Of a stretch of 64,000 bases of DNA, positions 5,357-41,958 are shown piece by piece. The position numbers and the translations under genes are program-made. Location: the IMG/VR virus record IMGVR_UViG_3300029361_000001. One strand, written 5' to 3'. Every line of letters starts with the position of its first letter. The first letter of the stretch is position 1. The stretch comes from a virus. The notes under the pieces are model-generated. The model worked only from the letters and a program-made list of their open reading frames with translations. It did not search any database and was not told the origin of the DNA.

Positions 5357-8300
5357 TGGCTTCACAGTATAGTATTTTAAGGCAATATGCCCCGTATGTT
5401 AGTCCTTACAACATAGATCTTGTTAAGGACGTCATGATGTACAAACAGCAGAAGGTTGATGCTGCTCGTGAAAAGATCTATACCCAGGTAGATTATCTTA
5501 TGGGTCAAGAGATAGATAAGCCTGAAGCCCGCGCTTATATGGAAGATAAGATGTCAGGTGTGATTGCTAACATCAATCAAAAATTCAAAGGCGTGGATCT
5601 TTCTTCTGATGGTGTTACGAGAGCTATACAAGGAGAGATCAGTTCGGTGTTAGATGATACGGTCATTAATGCTATTGCCGGTACAAAAGAAGGCAAGAGG
5701 GTTATGAAGGAAATAGAATCTATAAAACAGAATCATCCTGAACTTTATTCTCCTATTAATGAATGGCATGCTTTGGATCCTTATTACAAATGGAGGTCAG
5801 ATGGTAAGGCGGGATCAAGGTTGGGAGGTCTTCATTATTCTCCTTATGTCGATTATACTAAGGAGATAAATAAGCTGGTTAGTGACTTTAGGAAAAACAA
5901 CGAAGGCAAGAAGATTCAGACAACAGAATATGATGTTAAAGGTAATCCTACTGGTGGAATCATAGAAGTCAACGTAGATGAGCTTACTGATTCCCAGATA
6001 AGGAATTTTGTGTCTGCTAACTTATCTGAAAACATGAGGAATCAGATGAGAATAGAAGCATCATACATGGCAGCCACCAATCCAGTGTTCAGTAATCCGG
6101 ATTTGGTTAGTCAATATATTGGGTCTTATGTCGAAAGATACGATAGGCACATAGGAGCATTGGAAGCAAAAAAGAAATCAGTAGGGGATAATAAGGATAT
6201 TATTGATCGTATTGACAGCCAGATACAGGAAGCTAAAAATCAGAAAGCAGAAGCCAAGAGGGAGGCAGATATGATAATAGCTTCATCAGATCCGGTAGCG
6301 GCTGCTAATTTTGTTGTTACCAATAATCTTTTCGATAAGATGACTGATGCATGGAGATACGACAATACAAGTTTTGAAAGGAAGAAAGACGATCTTTATT
6401 TTGCAAGGTTGGCAGAGGATAGGGCTCAGCGAAAGTTTTTGACTGATAATGCCAAGTCCATGGTTGAAATATCATTGGCGAATGAGCAGCTTGCTCAGGC
6501 TAAGATTGAAACCGAATACATGCGTACTTACGGTTCCAAGATGGGCACTGAAAGCTCATCCGGAGGCACAAGAGGAGCAGGCGGTGTAGGAGTGCCGATG
6601 GCTCCTATGGACGGGCCTACGGCTATCAATTCTGGAACGGGTAAGATAGGATCTGTTAATTTGGCTAATATCCCTTATGAACAACTCACATCTTCTTCCA
6701 CAGAGCGTAGAGCAAATTTATTGAAATTATATAATTCATTATCTCCTACAGACAGAAGCAATATCGTTGCAGCATCATACGAAGAAGAAAAAACTGACCC
6801 AGGATTGTATGCTAATATGACTCCTGAAGAACGGATATATTCTTATTTAAAAAATAATGGAGGTCAGAAAAACGGATATTTCGGACAAGGAAATAACAGA
6901 TTGTCTGAAGCTTATGATGCTTTACTTCTTTCTGATTCTAAGGCAAATGGAGCTGCAAAGGCTATAAATAACGTAACTGATTATCAAATAGATAATATAG
7001 TTACTAAAAAAAATAAGGATATTATCAGGAAAGTTCGTAATGCTAAGTTTATGAAAGGAAATTCTTTTATGAATCTTACCAATACAGATGATAAGGCTGG
7101 AGCCTTCCTGCTCGCCACAGCCATAACAACTGGTGTATCTGATGCCGTAGGGATCAGAGAATACATGATGGATCCTTCAAGAGGAATAGATATTCTTAGT
7201 GCTATATCTCCGTCATTAGGAGCTAAGGTGAGTGCCGGCAAGTTGGGGAAAAACATATCTGATGCTATTACAAGCGAGAATAATGGTTCTTCTACTGGTA
7301 CATTGGCTCTTATTAATGGAATGAAGAAACTCAATGGCGATCCTGATTTTAATATATCTGATTATATGACCATAGATAAGGATGGTGATATAGATTTAAA
7401 AGATTATCAGGAAGGTGAACCATTGACTATTACCCAGCTAAGATATGCTGAGAAAAACAGTAGGGTGTCTGATATGATAGCAAGTCAGATGCAGGATGAG
7501 ATAAAAATGTCTGTATCTCCCGATCAGATTTCTGATAAGTTATCTCAGTATCATTACCTTGATTCTTACAAAAGATACAATTGGAATGCCGATTCGCCGG
7601 AAAAGTCTTTGCAGAAGGCTCAGTTTAGAAGATTGTCTGGTTACATGGCAGGAAAGGTAAATAATCTGGATCCTACTGCTATTAATGCCATTAATATGGA
7701 TGCCGAGATAGATAATGGCACCGTTAGAAGATTCTTGACTGCTCAAGTAGGTTCCGGTGAAAATTCTTATGTTACAGAAAGGGTTGAGATTACGAATGAC
7801 GAGCTTCTTAAGGCGGGTATAGATCCTTCGGTCGAGGAGCGCAATTATCCGGTAGATGGCTACAAATCAAGTTTTGAAACCTGTGATTTTGTAGATACCG
7901 GAAAGAAGGAAGGTTATTCTTATGATAAGTATCTTATACGTAATGGCCTTCCTCGTTTGGCTTCTAAGGCTGATGTTAAGAATGATCTTTATGATATAGT
8001 AAAGGTTCATGGTTCTTACCTTAAGCCAGAAGAAATGAATGTTGTTAAAGCCCTTGTTGATAATTTTATTGACATGTCTGATAATATATCAGTTCAGTTG
8101 GAGGGAATGGACGATAGGGGTTCAAGAGAGGTAGCGGTCAATTTCTATGACAAAAGGACTAAAAATTCTAAAAATCCTGCATTGTTGTTCTCGGATTTTG
8201 TTCCTTTGGATCCAGGTAATGATGAGTATGCGGATTACTGGAATAGCATTCACCAGAAGTGTCCTCAGTACTTCTTTGTAAAATACGTGAAGGAGGCTGT

Positions 8301-35855: not shown

Positions 35856-36026
35856 ATTTCTTTTAAGTAGTTAAACCAAATAGCTTCAAGTTTCTCCTGG
35901 AACTCAAACGCCTTTTTAAAATTTCCGCACCGTACCGCCACGTTCCTCATCTCTTCAAGATATATGACTTCCGGATCTTGCCGGTATTTTGTTCTTAACT
36001 TTTGAACGTCCTCGTATTTCATCGAT
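35856..36026 (-). CDS. Possible 56 aa protein (MKYEDVQKLRTKYRQDPEVIYLEEMRNVAV…) filling the gap. It is below the cutoff of the ORF track.
   Basis: I translated the minus strand of the gap by hand. The ATG lies at 36024-36026 and the stop is about 35856. Confidence 0.3.
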
Positions 36027-37038
36027 TTATCTTTTTAGACGGATCCCAATCTGAAGAGAAAGGGCATTCGTTTTTGTTATGTAATCCAAAGTCACAATAA
36101 TAACACAGTGCCGACGGGCAGGGTAGCTTGTTTTGCGAAACAGGCTGGCTTAGGGTGGCACGCCGCTTGCTATACCTGGCTCCTTCTGCTCCCTGGATGT
36201 ACGCTTGAAATGATTTTACACTATTATCTTCAAAATCATACATTTTAGATAAAGTGTCATTTAGCATCTCTATAGATTTTGTTTTACGTTCCTCATCCAC
36301 CTTAACCTTTTGGTACTGCCTGGTTCTGGTAAAGAAATAGATGTTCATATCTGGTAGAACCCCACCATATTTTCTATAGATGTAAAACGAATATATAGGA
36401 TGCTGTAAATTCGTTTCCAACTTCTTAGAATCAAAAACCTTATTCCCTGATTTCCAATCTATGACATAATGGTGAATTACGTTCTTGCTCTTTATAGCCA
36501 GATGAAGGTCTACTGATCCTACTATGTACACATGGGTATGAATTACCCCATTTATGTCAACTGGCTTAGGAAGACGGTACGGCAGCACAAAATCTTCTTC
36601 GACTCCAACTATAGCGCCGTGTCTGATAAGTTTCTCACAAGGATTAAGATCACTATCAGCTATCATAAACCTATTGCCGTCTTTTTTAAACAGATCCACA
36701 ATCCAAGCAAGAAGCTCCCCAGATTGTTTCATGGCTATCATCATATTTTCCGGTGATTGCCAAGGTATGTCTTCTTGGTAAGCATAGTAACTTATTGCTT
36801 CTCCAAGGTCTTTGCCAGAAGGCTGCCTTCCGTTCTTGAAGAAGTATTCCAGTGTCTTATGAATAACCGTACCATAAGACGTAGCTTCTTGTTTTTCTGT
36901 AGACCTTTTGCCCTCTACGTAAGTCTTATACCATTTCATTGGACAAGTAAGAAACGTATCTATCTGGGAATAAGAAATGGCAAGACGTTTCACACCATTA
37001 AACTCCTTATATAGCAAATGCGTTTCCGGGACCATCAT
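36019..37038 (-). CDS. PD-(D/E)XK family exonuclease, Cas4/RecB-like.
   Basis: An N-terminal SYSQIDTFLTCPMKWY motif, an IDWKSG (D-x-K) motif and a C-terminal cysteine cluster CPSALCYYC…ECP together give the Cas4-like pattern of 1 + 3 Cys. Confidence 0.6.
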   Translation of the reverse strand: MMVPETHLLYKEFNGVKRLAISYSQIDTFLTCPMKWYKTYVEGKRSTEKQEATSYGTVIHKTLEYFFKNGRQPSGKDLGEAISYYAYQEDIPWQSPENMMIAMKQSGELLAWIVDLFKKDGNRFMIADSDLNPCEKLIRHGAIVGVEEDFVLPYRLPKPVDINGVIHTHVYIVGSVDLHLAIKSKNVIHHYVIDWKSGNKVFDSKKLETNLQHPIYSFYIYRKYGGVLPDMNIYFFTRTRQYQKVKVDEERKTKSIEMLNDTLSKMYDFEDNSVKSFQAYIQGAEGARYSKRRATLSQPVSQNKLPCPSALCYYCDFGLHNKNECPFSSDWDPSKKINR

Positions 37039-37394: not shown

Positions 37395-37456
37395 AATGCT
37401 TGGTCAGTTCTTCTGGTTCTAAATCTTGTCCAAAATCCATGTTAAAAATATTGTAA

Positions 37457-38230
37457 TTAGTAAAGCACTGTCCCTGCCGGCAGGAAATCTATAAATGCTG
37501 CTTTTGCTTCTTCAATTAGGCCCAAGTGTAACCTTGGGCCATTAGCTACAGCCGTTTCTTTTTCCTTCTGTTGTACAGCAATCTTAATAGCACCCAGCTT
37601 TTCCTGTTCTTCGATATTAGCCTGTGCTTCGTTCAGAGCCTTGCTTTCAGCCTCTTTACCAAGATTCATGATGTAGCCGGCTTCATCTCTGATGTCACTG
37701 ATGTTAATGTTCAAAAGATAAAGACCCAATTTATTAAGTTCGTTATCAATGTTTTTTCTTGCCTTATCCAAAAACTCATCCCTATCAGAATTAAGTTTTT
37801 CGATTGTCATTTCGGCAATAATCAAACGCATCTGACCGTAAACGATGTCTGTAATAAGATTTTCAGTAGATTCGGTATCCATCCCCAAAAGTCTTTCTGC
37901 TGCATTTTGCATGATTTCAGGATTTGTACTGATAGCTACTGTAATAGTTGTAGGCACATCTACTCTAATATTCTGAGATGACAAAGCACCGGTAAGCCTA
38001 CAATCTATTTGCATAGGCTCCATAGATAAAATATCATAGCTTTGGATAATAGGCAACACGAATGCTGCTCCACCATGATATAATTTCGCCGATTTCTTCT
38101 CTCCACCTGTCTTACCATAAACGACCAAGACCTGATTAGGCTTACATCTACGATACCTTGATAAGACTCCGATGATTGTCAAAATAATCACTACAGCTAA
38201 GATGGCTGACACGTACATGATTGTTGTCAT
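37457..38230 (-). CDS. SPFH/band-7 (stomatin/prohibitin/flotillin-like) membrane protein.
   Basis: It has an N-terminal TM helix followed by a PHB-like core (VLVVYGKTGG…QIDCRLTG…IRVDVPTTITVAI…AEMTIEKLNSDRDEF…) and a C-terminal coiled coil. Confidence 0.65.
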   Translation of the reverse strand: MTTIMYVSAILAVVIILTIIGVLSRYRRCKPNQVLVVYGKTGGEKKSAKLYHGGAAFVLPIIQSYDILSMEPMQIDCRLTGALSSQNIRVDVPTTITVAISTNPEIMQNAAERLLGMDTESTENLITDIVYGQMRLIIAEMTIEKLNSDRDEFLDKARKNIDNELNKLGLYLLNINISDIRDEAGYIMNLGKEAESKALNEAQANIEEQEKLGAIKIAVQQKEKETAVANGPRLHLGLIEEAKAAFIDFLPAGTVLY

Positions 38231-38262
38231 AACTTTTAAAATTTAATTGTTGATAAAAAAAA

Positions 38263-38757
38263 TTAGATACTTAATTCTCCTTCTTCGTATTTTATATTCA
38301 CCTTGTCACCGTTTTTGTAAGTTTTTCCAGACAAGCATCTTACTCTCATTTGCTCCTGTCTTCCATTTTTCGAAATATTTACCATATAATGATTCTTCCC
38401 TGATCTAAACACTATCTCCACCTCTCTTTCATTTAAATCTTCCGGACATTCGTACACCATTTCTTGCTTTAACTTAAGAAGTAACTTATATACGTAAAAC
38501 AAAACGATAAAGAAAAACGACCCTATCACAACCCCTACTAAATGGGAACCCGAAAAGTAGGTAGTCCAGCTATATCCAAGAATAAAATGTGTTATGCCCT
38601 TGAATGATATGATGTCCGACAAAGACATACTTAGATCAGAAGCATCATCAATATCAATATCCGTATCCAGATCAGATCCTAATATCGACAACAAAAACTG
38701 TATAACAAAAGCAAATGACGCTATTAAAGCCATGCATAAAATTATGTCACTTCCCAT
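38263..38757 (-). CDS. NfeD-like membrane protein, the usual partner of an SPFH protein.
   Basis: It has two or three TM helices and a C-terminal beta-rich OB-like segment (EVEIVFRSGKNHYMVNISKNGRQEQMRVRCLSGKTYKNGDKVNIKYEEGELSI). It lies immediately downstream of the SPFH gene. Confidence 0.5.
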   Translation of the reverse strand: MGSDIILCMALIASFAFVIQFLLSILGSDLDTDIDIDDASDLSMSLSDIISFKGITHFILGYSWTTYFSGSHLVGVVIGSFFFIVLFYVYKLLLKLKQEMVYECPEDLNEREVEIVFRSGKNHYMVNISKNGRQEQMRVRCLSGKTYKNGDKVNIKYEEGELSI

Positions 38758-38998
38758 ATCCTTCTGTTATTATTTTGTAAACAAGATCAGTCATATCTTT
38801 GATGGTCTCCATATCATAATCATTAATAACAATATTGAATTTTTGTTCCACCATCATTTCCAGTTCAATTTGATCGATAGAATCTAATCCAAGTTCTTTA
38901 AACGTCACATCTTCTTCATGAACTATATCTATTTCCGAATTAAGAAACTGAGTAATAATTATATCCTCTATTATCTTTCTGATTCTTACTTTTTCCAT
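38747..38998 (-). CDS. Acyl carrier protein-like, 83 aa.
   Basis: LGLDSIDQIELEM matches the phosphopantetheine-attachment DSL motif (DLGADSLDTVELVM). It is small and acidic. Confidence 0.6.
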   Translation of the reverse strand: MEKVRIRKIIEDIIITQFLNSEIDIVHEEDVTFKELGLDSIDQIELEMMVEQKFNIVINDYDMETIKDMTDLVYKIITEGYGK

Positions 38999-40532: not shown

Positions 40533-41666
40533 TTAATACAATGACTGTTCTTCTTTTGTCTCTTGTTCTTGTTCCTGATTGCCCGTAACGTCTTCCACAG
40601 TATAGAGCTTGGGCGGCGTCGGCGGCTGGTTGGGGTTCACGAACTTCGTCCCGCCCTCCCCGTACATCCATCCATGCCCCGGCAGGATCTCTGGGTGGAT
40701 TGTATTAGTAAGCTCTTCCATACTAACCTGCCTTACCTTCAGTATATGATGAAACACCAGTCCGGCTGTCCTGAATGATGTTTTGTTTTCAGTTTTAAAC
40801 CTATCAAGAGTCTGATACCAATCTTTCCCAAATATCATATACTTATCCAGCCCGTACCGACGAGGATTATGCAAACCTATCATTAACGTACATAACTGAC
40901 CCAGCGTATCAGACTGGTAAAAATCAGAAAGACGCGGAGGCTGCTCTTGTGGGCTTTTTATCCTTCCTTCTATCTCTCTGTTGAATTGGGATATGATGAG
41001 GAAAAATATGTTTTTATATACTAATTTAGCTTCGTTCATAACCGCCACCAAATCATCTATAGCCGACTTAGGATCTAATCCCATTCTTTTTATCAAAGCA
41101 ATATGATCGACTTTAAATATTATAAGACGTTTGTCTTTGTGTTTGGTAGCTATATGATACACGGCCGCCTCAAACTCTTTTACCGTACACGGAGCATCGA
41201 TGTATATTATGTTATTTCTGATTTCACCTTGAAGGATTTCAAACATCCTCATCTCTTCTACTGTATTAGAATCTTGCCTTCTTAATATTTCAGGAGCCCT
41301 CTTTTTCATATCCTGGCTCATTCTACGAAGAAGAAGATCTTGAGGATTCATTTCGAACTCGCAATTAACAAGAAAATAATCTTCTGCTTGCGGGTTGATC
41401 ATCGGATTCATCACATTTTCCAATATCTTTTGGGCCACATACGATTTACCTACAGATGGCCGGGCTCCTATAGCAATAGCATGCTGAGGAAAAATACCTC
41501 CAAGCAAAGCCTCATCAATATAATCGTATCCTGTTTTAGCGGGGATAAGCTCTCCCCGCCTGTATTTCAAGATATTCTCATACGCCTCTTCCATAACCTG
41601 TTTAGAGGTTTTGAATATCCTTCTTATATCTATTTTATTTTTCAGATCCTCTTGCATTTTTGTCAC
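40533..41666 (-). CDS. DnaB-family replicative helicase (RecA-like C-terminal domain).
   Basis: IAIGARPSVGKSYVAQ aligns with DnaB IIAARPSMGKTAFAL (Walker A). It also has ISQFNREIEGR (the LSQLNR motif) and SDTLGQLCTLMIGLH. Confidence 0.65.
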   Translation of the reverse strand: MTKMQEDLKNKIDIRRIFKTSKQVMEEAYENILKYRRGELIPAKTGYDYIDEALLGGIFPQHAIAIGARPSVGKSYVAQKILENVMNPMINPQAEDYFLVNCEFEMNPQDLLLRRMSQDMKKRAPEILRRQDSNTVEEMRMFEILQGEIRNNIIYIDAPCTVKEFEAAVYHIATKHKDKRLIIFKVDHIALIKRMGLDPKSAIDDLVAVMNEAKLVYKNIFFLIISQFNREIEGRIKSPQEQPPRLSDFYQSDTLGQLCTLMIGLHNPRRYGLDKYMIFGKDWYQTLDRFKTENKTSFRTAGLVFHHILKVRQVSMEELTNTIHPEILPGHGWMYGEGGTKFVNPNQPPTPPKLYTVEDVTGNQEQEQETKEEQSLY

Positions 41667-41958
41667 CTTTCGTATCCGATTTGGATCCCCTATTAGCTTT
41701 TACTGATTTATACCTAAGACCGTTCTTTGTATGAGAACAATCTTTGCCTTTCCTCCAGCCCTTGCCTTTCTTCTTGTCCGTTTCGTAGTTTTTACGACCA
41801 AGCTCTCGGCGTTTGGCTTTCTGTTCCGGTCTGGCATTTATCTCCTTGTCCTTTTTAGCCTTTTTCTTCCTGGCTTCGGGATGAGTCCTGTAGTACTCTG
41901 TTGATCTGCCCATCTTCTTACATTTTTTTTTGATTAATAATAGCACAAAGATAGGCAA
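41635..41958 (-). CDS. Highly basic Lys/Arg-rich small protein, 107 aa.
   Basis: It has runs of K/R and is histone-like or nucleic-acid-binding-like in composition. Confidence 0.4.
   Translation of the reverse strand: MPIFVLLLIKKKCKKMGRSTEYYRTHPEARKKKAKKDKEINARPEQKAKRRELGRKNYETDKKKGKGWRKGKDCSHTKNGLRYKSVKANRGSKSDTKGDKNARGSEK

Follow-up and report, generated by a model that had tools for sequence, protein, structure and literature searches.

The window, a 64,000-nucleotide stretch of viral DNA, carries three genes that are probably best explained as a NfeD-like/flotillin operon derived from a bacterial host and broken in this genome, accompanied by a separate, fast-evolving acyl carrier protein (ACP) gene. 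The source of the window is a crAss-like human-gut phage of the csAssE-Sib type, with a genome of ~150 kb. The window is 96.4% identical in nucleotide sequence to csAssE-Sib, whose GenBank annotation lists a flotillin, a transmembrane protein, and an ACP.

Results

Gene layout of the locus

The three minus-strand ORFs and their features are listed in Table 1. An earlier note on this DNA had described three co-directional, adjacent genes encoding an SPFH protein, an NfeD-like protein and an ACP-like protein, and the ORFs of the window bear this arrangement out. The placement of the module between an exonuclease gene and a DnaB-like helicase gene was likewise confirmed by profile searches, which identify the exonuclease as PD-(D/E)XK. 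The ACP and NfeD-like ORFs overlap by 11 nt. Promoter and terminator scans gave counts equal to the shuffle expectation. A 237-aa protein encoded upstream had no informative match in Pfam, PHROGs, or other sequence searches; it was considered as a candidate ACP partner or phosphopantetheinyl transferase (PPTase), with no sequence match backing either.

Table 1. Features of the flotillin/NfeD-like/ACP locus in the window
Feature	Position	Strand	Description
ACP-like gene	38747..38998	-	83 aa, pI 4.3; Pfam PP-binding and PHROG 5934
NfeD-like flotillin partner	38263..38757	-	164 aa; three TM helices, C-terminal OB barrel (residues ~108-164)
Spacer between NfeD-like and flotillin genes	38231..38262	-	32 nt, A/T-rich; left breakpoint region of whole-gene flotillin deletions in relatives
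SPFH ORF	37457..38230	-	257 aa
Flotillin 5' remnant (residues 1-230)	37541..38230	-	TM anchor, SPFH domain, first ~35 coiled-coil residues
Deletion junction	37541..37543	-	AAT (Asn230) codon common to both breakpoints
Tail of fusion ORF	37457..37540	-	From small tail-anchored TM ORF downstream of flotillin in relatives

The SPFH gene is a flotillin remnant

The 257-aa SPFH protein matches Pfam Band_7 (PF01145) over residues 30-211 with 93.2 bits against a cut-off of 23.6 (E-value 2.6e-26), covering profile positions 4-176 of 176, and contains no other Pfam domain. Hydrophobic residues 5-23 near the N-terminus read as a membrane anchor. FloT is the top NCBIfam model (2.3e-31), with HflC reaching just 1.3e-3, although the FloT match, at 109.4 bits against a cut-off of 700 and spanning positions 4-230 of 477, does not reach equivalog level. 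Among PDB sequences, the closest solved relatives of the full-length homolog are Flotillin-2 and Flotillin-1.

The full-length flotillin of csAssE-Sib has 566 aa, and the 566-568 aa flotillins of relatives contain both Band_7 and a Flot half (PF15975) that is absent from the window protein, which stops 27 residues past flotillin position 230. BLAST comparison with csAssE-Sib returned two segments overlapping at the junction codon, the remnant being 95.6% identical over its alignment segment, and ~1,015 bp of the reference were absent from the window. The breakpoints, 1458/2474 in reference coordinates, share a 3-bp microhomology, and the right one falls beyond the repetitive stretch. The reading frame stays open across the junction into a tail, GPRLHLGLIEEAKAAFIDFLPAGTVLY, which was matched to the translation of nucleotides 7420-7572 of a related phage locus (L001) and has a counterpart in a second (L090). 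In relatives this sequence belongs to a small tail-anchored TM ORF of 50-52 aa located 3' of flotillin; in the window its TM helix has been lost through an extra ~10-bp indel, and net -10/-11 indels are frequent among relatives.

Read from these alignments, the 257-aa ORF is flotillin residues 1-230 joined to the tail of the small downstream ORF, not a complete gene, and a microhomology-mediated deletion of 1,015 bp took out residues 231-566, comprising the coiled coil and the Flot oligomerization domain. The description of the protein in the earlier note as an anchored SPFH scaffold with a coiled coil thus stands for the Band_7 domain and the TM anchor; it missed the truncation, which leaves only ~35 coiled-coil residues and no Flot half. 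In solved Flotillin-1/2 and HflK/C (SPFH) cages, the C-terminal coiled-coil half is needed for oligomerization. Because the 1-kb deletion halved the flotillin gene, the scaffold gene is defective and the module is probably non-working in this genome.

It is extremely improbable that the short gene is an assembly or sequencing artifact of a repetitive coiled-coil-coding region. The missing region does encode a low-complexity K/E/A-rich coiled coil, and some related "truncated" proteins simply stop where a contig ends, but the same junction and 257-aa product recur in independent assemblies from different pipelines and biosamples (ENA scaffolds of 139.6 and 126.7 kb, and Logan contigs), and the clean 3-bp microhomology, with its right breakpoint beyond the repeat region, also speaks against it.

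Flotillin is repeatedly lost in related phages

Flotillin is intact, with its coiled-coil/Flot half, in 57 of 80 related loci. The others include at least five distinct deletion junctions, frameshifts at several positions, and in-frame deletions; the whole gene is gone in nine of the 80 loci, with junctions at 739/2569 and 741/2578, and the ACP and NfeD-like genes are kept where flotillin is deleted. These many other deletions and frameshifts therefore mark flotillin as a conditionally dispensable accessory gene in these phages. The exact 257-aa product recurs on 12 contigs, which come from at least four samples (the source samples include SAMN05971525, SAMN05971526, and SAMN05971529), and for this reason the allele is heritable; the four samples belong to one study, and a single lineage may explain the recurrence.

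Being open, in frame and persistent across samples, the truncated ORF could have kept or gained a function. A specific form of this idea, that the 257-aa SPFH protein has acquired a new function under selection, either capping host flotillin in a dominant-negative manner or serving as a minimal, monomeric SPFH protein in the membrane, would fit the preserved frame, the identical allele on those contigs, the intact TM anchor and entire SPFH domain, and the purifying selection on the NfeD-like gene (below). We nevertheless judge it rather improbable: the varied disruptions, complete losses and scattered frameshifts are the signature of decay instead of one selected form, the single-study origin of the four samples may suffice to explain recurrence, and the part required for oligomerization in solved flotillin/SPFH cages is missing.

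Selection on the three genes

Between clades, flotillin shows 82% protein identity and DnaB 79%; dN/dS at this distance was unusable due to saturated dS, and within-clade pN/pS was taken instead. The pN/pS values were 0.044 for flotillin and 0.058 for the NfeD-like gene, compared with 0.048-0.057 for neighboring genes, and 0.435 for the ACP gene. Purifying selection on the intact 566-aa flotillin matches in strength that on the replication genes, and the ACP evolves ~10 times faster than its neighbors, under a selection regime quite unlike that of the pair. The changes behind the high ACP value include some in the recognition helix.

Strong purifying selection on the gene where it occurs, paired with repeated, independent losses, is a pattern typical of accessory genes that are useful only under some conditions, and one reading is that the intact pair serves counter-defense or superinfection exclusion, guarding the membrane against pore-forming abortive-infection effectors or blocking competing phages, with the polymorphism reflecting host-dependent benefit. 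Its independent acquisition or retention in several large gut-phage lineages and its early-gene position near a weak Lar-like (restriction alleviation) match would agree with such a role. However, no PADLOC defense model was matched, literature searches found no such role described, and a mild, dispensable housekeeping benefit explains the pattern equally, and we hold this reading to be unlikely.

The 164-aa protein is a putative NfeD-like partner

The 164-aa protein contains three TM helices, the first of them followed by an acidic DxDxDxD loop, together with an SFKGxxHF motif and a C-terminal OB barrel. The helices and barrel appear in a confidently predicted AF2 model (pLDDT 88.9), and the predicted combination of N-terminal TM helices with a five-stranded C-terminal OB barrel resembles solved NfeD domains. 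The protein itself had no match in Pfam (E ≤ 0.1), PHROGs, NCBIfam, or PADLOC and did not reach the gathering score of PF01957, so the Pfam NfeD domain expected by the earlier note was not recovered by direct search. When PF01957 was searched against 76 family representatives, one matched (6e-5). Among bacterial family members, eight of ten match PF01957, one of them above the gathering score (31.1 bits against a cut-off of 29.1), and a profile built from phage sequences only recovers bacterial members at 1e-9 to 1e-17. Against PDB sequences, a six-sequence profile of the family found nothing, and a 76-sequence profile yielded, besides TM-helix noise, just a marginal match to YuaF.

The gene lies directly upstream of, and co-directional with, the flotillin-type gene in the window. 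The NfeD-like assignment holds, as a putative one, by predicted fold, transitive homology, and synteny only: what the earlier note had said of the TM helices and OB-like domain agrees with the model, the family link and the gene order, without a direct PF01957 match.

The NfeD-like/flotillin pair resembles a Bacteroidales operon

In 74 of 80 bacterial loci the gene immediately 5' of flotillin belongs to the NfeD-like family, and this order of the two genes is the standard arrangement of the flotillin operon on Bacteroidota chromosomes. In tblastn searches, the phage flotillin was 62-66% identical over nearly full length to flotillins of Bacteroides, Prevotella, and Parabacteroides, and identity to Bacteroidales flotillins was ~71% over trimmed alignment columns; taken together, the identity is about 65-70%. 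In a neighbor-joining tree, the phage clade is sister to the flotillins of Bacteroides, Phocaeicola, Parabacteroides, and Prevotella, inside the Bacteroidales; the direction of transfer is read from this distance tree, which carries no support values. Because the phage flotillin is sister to the Bacteroidales flotillins, we infer that the complete two-gene cassette was captured from a Bacteroidales host, and this capture forms part of the explanation that we consider probable.

Sampling of 70 additional large viral contigs recovered the pair in 69, and it is common in other gut viral contigs of 95-435 kb. The view that such a pair is unusual in a phage was therefore overstated, the more so as SPFH genes are present in T4-like and Vi01-like phages and the genes of csAssE-Sib were already annotated.

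The ACP assignment holds, but the gene appears separate from the pair

The ACP-like protein matches the Pfam PP-binding domain (PF00550) at 9.4e-8 (32.6 bits against a cut-off of 20.8) and PHROG 5934 (acyl carrier protein) at 1.7e-10. The top NCBIfam ACP models reach 33-37 bits where the equivalog cut-offs are 70-106, below the level of AcpP orthology. Its top PDB sequence matches are all type II ACPs, with 89 solved ACP sequences at E ≤ 0.01, and its serine (S40) aligns with that of the DS motif in solved ACPs. A canonical acidic helix II comes after GLDS, the phosphopantetheine-attachment motif, which is kept in 81 of 82 homologs, including lineages just 39-45% identical. Both the assignment as an ACP with a phosphopantetheinylation motif and the conservation of the attachment serine are thereby upheld. 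Homolog searches with the ACPs recovered almost only near-identical phage variants, and the closest non-phage relative is encoded in a bacterial gene cluster for membrane lipids. Neither 53 other ORFs of the early region nor the csAssE-Sib annotation yielded a PPTase, acyltransferase, or ketosynthase domain.

None of the 80 bacterial flotillin operons includes an ACP gene, nor was one adjacent to the pair in ~70 other viral loci with the pair outside this clade, as judged with an ACP model free of an ACP-NfeD fusion ORF; one such fusion ORF occurs among the collected sequences. The adjacency therefore appears specific to this phage clade and not part of the operon. The attachment of an ACP to the pair, of which the earlier note knew no described case, is indeed confined to this clade, but flotillin and ACP were already annotated in the csAssE-Sib GenBank record.

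Could the three genes nonetheless act as one unit, with the NfeD-like/flotillin scaffold recruiting acylated or apo ACP to a membrane microdomain and supplying or sensing lipids for a replication or assembly platform? Three sublineages, despite ACP divergence to 39-45% identity, strictly keep ACP first, then the NfeD-like gene, then flotillin, the ACP stop overlapping the NfeD start; this is compatible with a functional link, as are the near-invariant attachment serine and the membrane-lipid context of the nearest non-phage relative. On the other side are the absence of ACP from the bacterial operons and other viral loci, an ACP pN/pS ~10 times that of the pair, and the persistence of ACP and NfeD-like genes without flotillin; the whole module is also tightly packed, which makes the overlap a weak sign of function. 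A functional trio is not supported, because ACP adjacency is clade-limited and the selection regime differs, and we regard the single-unit model as distinctly unlikely.

Discussion

Under the favored explanation of a host-derived flotillin operon, broken here, and a separate ACP, the intact pair would be made along with the replication genes and inserted into the host inner membrane, by analogy with cellular flotillins. Flotillin would form or join a flotillin cage on which the OB domain of the NfeD-like protein may dock, and the effect might be to supplement or re-tune the membrane-scaffold and membrane-stress system of the host during a long infection. In the window genome, the cage-forming part is missing, and at best the NfeD-like protein would act on the ~70%-identical flotillin of the host. 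The ACP would be a separate accessory gene, presumably activated by host AcpS and used by host lipid enzymes. The roles that the earlier note offered (replication compartment, cargo, anti-defense) are candidates, for which this genome has only a broken scaffold gene.

A broader proposal treats the cassette, possibly with the ACP, as a membrane device that benefits crAss-like and other large gut phages under certain conditions, by shielding the Bacteroides membrane from pore-forming abortive-infection effectors or by building a replication/assembly platform; deletions would then represent a host-dependent cost-benefit polymorphism, and SPFH stumps would act on host flotillin. We consider this unlikely.

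Flotillin/NfeD operons are widespread in bacteria, where little is understood of what they do. A captured, complete Bacteroidales operon in an abundant lineage of human-gut phages could make the system testable, and the coexistence in nature of an intact, conserved form with many null alleles would offer a ready natural knockout series for the role of the flotillin scaffold in infection. The window itself holds a largely explained and mostly ordinary gene set with a defective scaffold gene.

Comparison with known systems

SPFH genes were listed in the T4-like phages 44RR, Aeh1, and RB43 in 2006 and also in Vi01-like Sajous1, as gp200 (PMC1524935, PMC10892097). These phages, PHROG 200 and Vibrio phage KIT04 resemble the present case in that large virulent phages carry an SPFH protein of unassigned role. 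Most of the earlier-listed genes encode short SPFH lipoproteins or flotillins standing alone, and no NfeD partner is recognized for them, whereas here a whole host operon appears to be present; for the "flotillin family protein" of KIT04, which shares 29% identity, no partner is annotated. Literature searches on csAssE-Sib, on crAss-like phages with flotillin, and on flotillin, NfeD and phage returned no relevant paper on phage-borne copies.

The window ACP resembles PHROG 5934, Yersinia phage fHe-Yen9-04 g153, and Sajous1 gp186 in being a small acidic PP-binding protein with a DS(L/I/V) motif and no obvious synthase, but it is just 43% identical to the nearest deposited phage ACP, over 59% of its length.

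Among cellular systems, the operons compared with the phage pair are B. subtilis yuaF-floT (NfeD2-FloT) and E. coli yqiJ-yqiK. YuaF has marginal sequence similarity to the phage NfeD-like family, and the window protein does not match the Pfam NfeD or YqiJ models. In the structurally solved SPFH-NfeD complexes of E. coli (QmcA-YbbJ, PDB 8Z5G) and Pyrococcus (PH1511/PH1510), the SPFH protein is stomatin-type, whereas that of the phage is flotillin-type, and PH1510 has a protease domain that the phage NfeD-like protein lacks.

The closest counterpart is the Bacteroidales operon, which is like the phage cassette in its two genes, their order and the short spacer. In a B. thetaiotaomicron locus (L171), a 165-aa "hypothetical/transmembrane protein" precedes a 552-aa "flotillin family protein". 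The Bacteroidales and phage partners are ~38% identical and share TM1, the acidic loop, SFKGxxHF, the TM helices, and the OB architecture; the phage NfeD-like partner has diverged from its Bacteroidales counterpart far more than the phage flotillin has. The phage copy differs from the Bacteroidales operon in lying inside a replication module, with an ACP gene joined on 5' of the pair and a small tail-anchored ORF 3' of it, and the window flotillin, unlike that of Bacteroidales, is cut at residue 230.

Organization of the locus

The ACP-like, NfeD-like and SPFH/flotillin ORFs occupy exactly the interval in which the earlier note had placed three co-directional genes, within a minus-strand block that starts near 31 kb at a sign change in GC skew. 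The first two ORFs overlap by 11 nt, and a 32-nt A/T-rich spacer precedes the flotillin ORF. The exonuclease and DnaB-like helicase named in that note as flanking genes were recovered with Pfam and PHROGs. The region is 96.4% identical to the human gut phage csAssE-Sib (OR575929.1; 151 kb), whose record annotates a ring, muzzle and portal of crAss type and lists the trio as 'acyl carrier protein', 'transmembrane protein' and 'flotillin family protein'. Terminator-like sites are no more numerous than expected by chance, which, with the tight gene packing, fits the predicted co-transcription of the trio with the replication genes.

Coordinates of the trio and its flanking genes in the window
Feature	Position	Strand	Placement	Basis
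ACP-like ORF, 83 aa	38747-38998	minus		ORF call; PP-binding (Pfam)
NfeD-like ORF, 164 aa	38263-38757	minus		ORF call
SPFH ORF, 257 aa	37457-38230	minus		ORF call; Band_7 (Pfam)
PD-(D/E)XK exonuclease	36019-37038		one flank of the trio, together with an SF2 helicase	Pfam/PHROGs
DnaB-like helicase	40533-41666		opposite flank of the trio	Pfam/PHROGs

Further minus-strand ORFs of the early region (window 31000-63200) match DUF6371 with a Zn-ribbon (primase-like), DUF4494, dATP/dGTP diphosphohydrolase and SMC/AAA_23 ATPase, with weak Lar-like (restriction alleviation) and EcoRI-like matches. At 41635-41958 (minus strand), running into the start of the DnaB-like gene, lies a 107-aa ORF that is extremely basic (K/R-rich) and matches no family; it may be spurious or may encode a nucleic-acid-binding protein. 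Outside the window, csAssE-Sib has an annotated diversity-generating retroelement (VR/TR/IMH and reverse transcriptase; OR575929.1 45751-47816) targeting a tail-fibre-like gene, and two annotated TnpB genes.

The flotillin gene is truncated in the window and repeatedly lost among relatives

The SPFH assignment made in the earlier note held in the Pfam search (Band_7, 2.6e-26, 93.2 bits), with PHROGs and NCBIfam in agreement. In csAssE-Sib a 566-aa flotillin precedes a tail-anchored ORF of 50 aa; relative to that arrangement, ~1,015 bp are absent from the window. The alignment blocks join at 37541-37543, an AAT codon found at both breakpoints, so that the loss is a 3-bp microhomology deletion. 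The 257-aa product consists of flotillin residues 1-230 (TM anchor, SPFH domain and first coiled-coil turns) and the in-frame tail of the small ORF, from which a further ~10-bp indel has removed the TM segment. The Flot/coiled-coil half (PF15975 in relatives) is missing, and of the coiled coil previously ascribed to the protein only the first ~35 residues are present. An assembly artefact is ruled out as the source of the short gene by the identical 257-aa protein on 12 contigs from at least four biosamples, all of one study; Logan contigs are among the 12, as are ENA scaffolds 139.6 and 126.7 kb long.

Eighty closely related IMG/VR loci were picked by requiring an intact NfeD-like match; 57 of them code for an undisrupted 566-aa flotillin. 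Nine have lost the whole gene, with breakpoints at 739/2569 or 741/2578 (reference coordinates); large deletions of other extent (842/2644 and 907/2490) affect two loci, and the window deletion (1458/2474) brings the junction types to five. Additional alleles carry frameshifts at differing positions or, in one case, an in-frame internal deletion, and some short database entries are simply contig-end truncations. Within this NfeD-selected set, the flotillin-deleted loci keep the ACP and NfeD-like genes. Intact flotillin alleles have a pN/pS of 0.044, and between sublineages flotillin, at 82% protein identity, is as conserved as DnaB and the exonuclease (79% each). This mix of strong constraint where the gene is present and frequent loss elsewhere marks flotillin as an accessory gene that is conditionally dispensable.

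Between the small post-flotillin ORF and a 119-aa gene, 13/80 relatives (L013, L031, L041, L047, L049, L056, L064, L071, L076, L085, L030, L058 and L070) carry a ~355-bp insertion, at a site corresponding to window ~37395-37456, where the window has none. In another locus (L035 5601-5821), ~220 bp of unrelated sequence holding a GGAGACC...GGTCTCC hairpin replace the flotillin gene.

The NfeD-like protein and the origin of the pair

The 164-aa protein has no match in Pfam, PHROGs, NCBIfam or PADLOC. An exhaustive profile search assigned it to a family of 406 representatives at 50% identity, sharing TM1, an acidic GDxDxDxD loop, an SFKGxxHF motif, two further TM helices and a C-terminal beta domain. 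The family profile matches YuaF at an E-value of only 0.13, and PF01957 is matched by one of 76 representatives (6e-5). Eight of ten more distant bacterial members match PF01957, one above the gathering score, and a phage-only profile retrieves those members at 1e-9 to 1e-17. On its fold, its transitive homology and the gene order we therefore call the protein NfeD-like, short of demonstrated PF01957 membership; the NfeD partner proposed earlier stands in that sense, but not by direct Pfam match. The Bacteroides orthologue is named only 'hypothetical/transmembrane protein' at NCBI.

In a scan of one genome per species, flotillins of Bacteroides, Phocaeicola, Parabacteroides, Prevotella and Leyella were 62-66% identical over near-full length, and those of other Bacteroidota 37-45%. 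In 74/80 of these bacterial loci the gene just upstream of flotillin belongs to the NfeD-like family; in B. thetaiotaomicron a 165-aa protein precedes a 552-aa flotillin, the same order as in the phage. A distance tree, which carries no support values, places the csAssE clade inside Bacteroidales as sister to Bacteroidaceae, Prevotellaceae and Parabacteroides flotillins, and the majority of other viral flotillins in a separate clade. The simplest reading is that the csAssE-type lineage captured the whole host operon, and that in other phages the pair has an older history of its own.

That such a pair is unusual in a phage, as the earlier note had it, holds in part. Only 11/50,697 deposited phage records have a flotillin-like match, several being fragments. 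Uncultivated viruses look different: a pattern search with other family members found 70 loci, mostly on contigs of 95-435 kb (full range 9-435 kb), with a 600-710-aa flotillin directly downstream of the NfeD-like gene in 69. One more example adjoins multisubunit RNA polymerase genes, and SPFH genes were tabulated long ago in T4-like and Vi01-like phages, without functional study (PMC1524935, PMC10892097). The uncultivated gut viral contigs L096-L165 (IMG/VR; mostly 95-435 kb), a large clade apart from the csAssE type, carry the pair and often have, directly upstream and instead of an ACP, a small gene for a lipoprotein or signal-peptide protein.

The ACP as a probable separate accessory gene

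The 83-aa protein scores above the Pfam PP-binding cut-off (9.4e-8; 32.6 versus 20.8 bits), with PHROGs and NCBIfam in agreement, as expected from its earlier assignment as an ACP. The best matches among solved proteins are without exception type II ACPs, with whose attachment Ser its Ser40 aligns. The serine motif GLDS, whose lack of conservation would have spoken against an ACP, is present in 81/82 homologues and is kept in two sublineages with ACPs only 39-45% identical. The protein is acidic (pI 4.3) and scores far below the NCBIfam AcpP equivalog cut-offs. Its pN/pS is 0.435, ~10x the 0.04-0.06 of every neighbour, and the variation reaches helix II, the partner-recognition helix (DS[V/I/L]D[Q/R]IEL[E/D][V/M/A]M); these substitutions hint at adaptation to varying host partners.

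The 80 bacterial operons contain no ACP, and other viral lineages have none within 4 kb of the pair; no PPTase, acyltransferase, ketosynthase or adenylating domain was found in the 53 other early-region ORFs or the csAssE-Sib annotation. From this we regard the ACP as a separate accessory gene that adjoins the pair in this lineage only; because gene order is conserved within the clade, it may still be functionally linked to the pair. A weak lead comes from the ACP's nearest relative outside phages (44% identity, E 1.8e-5), which lies in a bacterial lipid cluster alongside PlsC-like and LpxL-like acyltransferases. That cluster (L250, Logan SRR22388344), which also holds three ACP-like genes, an ABC transporter and a ketosynthase, is a specialised-lipid pathway as opposed to core fatty-acid synthesis.

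Proposed role of the module

By analogy with cellular flotillins and SPFH-NfeD complexes, intact NfeD-like and flotillin proteins would insert into the host inner membrane, where the C-terminal half of flotillin would mediate oligomerisation and the OB domain of the partner would dock on flotillin. The positive residues that follow TM3 (KLLLKLK) suggest a cytoplasmic OB domain. With these proteins the phage would supplement or re-tune the host scaffold and membrane-stress system during infection. Since the oligomerisation half is missing in the window, the module there probably either has no activity or comes down to an NfeD-like protein, which could still encounter the ~70%-identical flotillin of the host.

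The earlier observation of an SPFH/NfeD/ACP trio in a phage replication module is confirmed, and its interpretation is borne out in part. The interest lies in the population-level pattern of flotillin loss and the wide occurrence of the pair in large gut phages. The locus itself is a phage-borne instance of a known operon type, already annotated in GenBank in the nearest relative and defective in the window genome.
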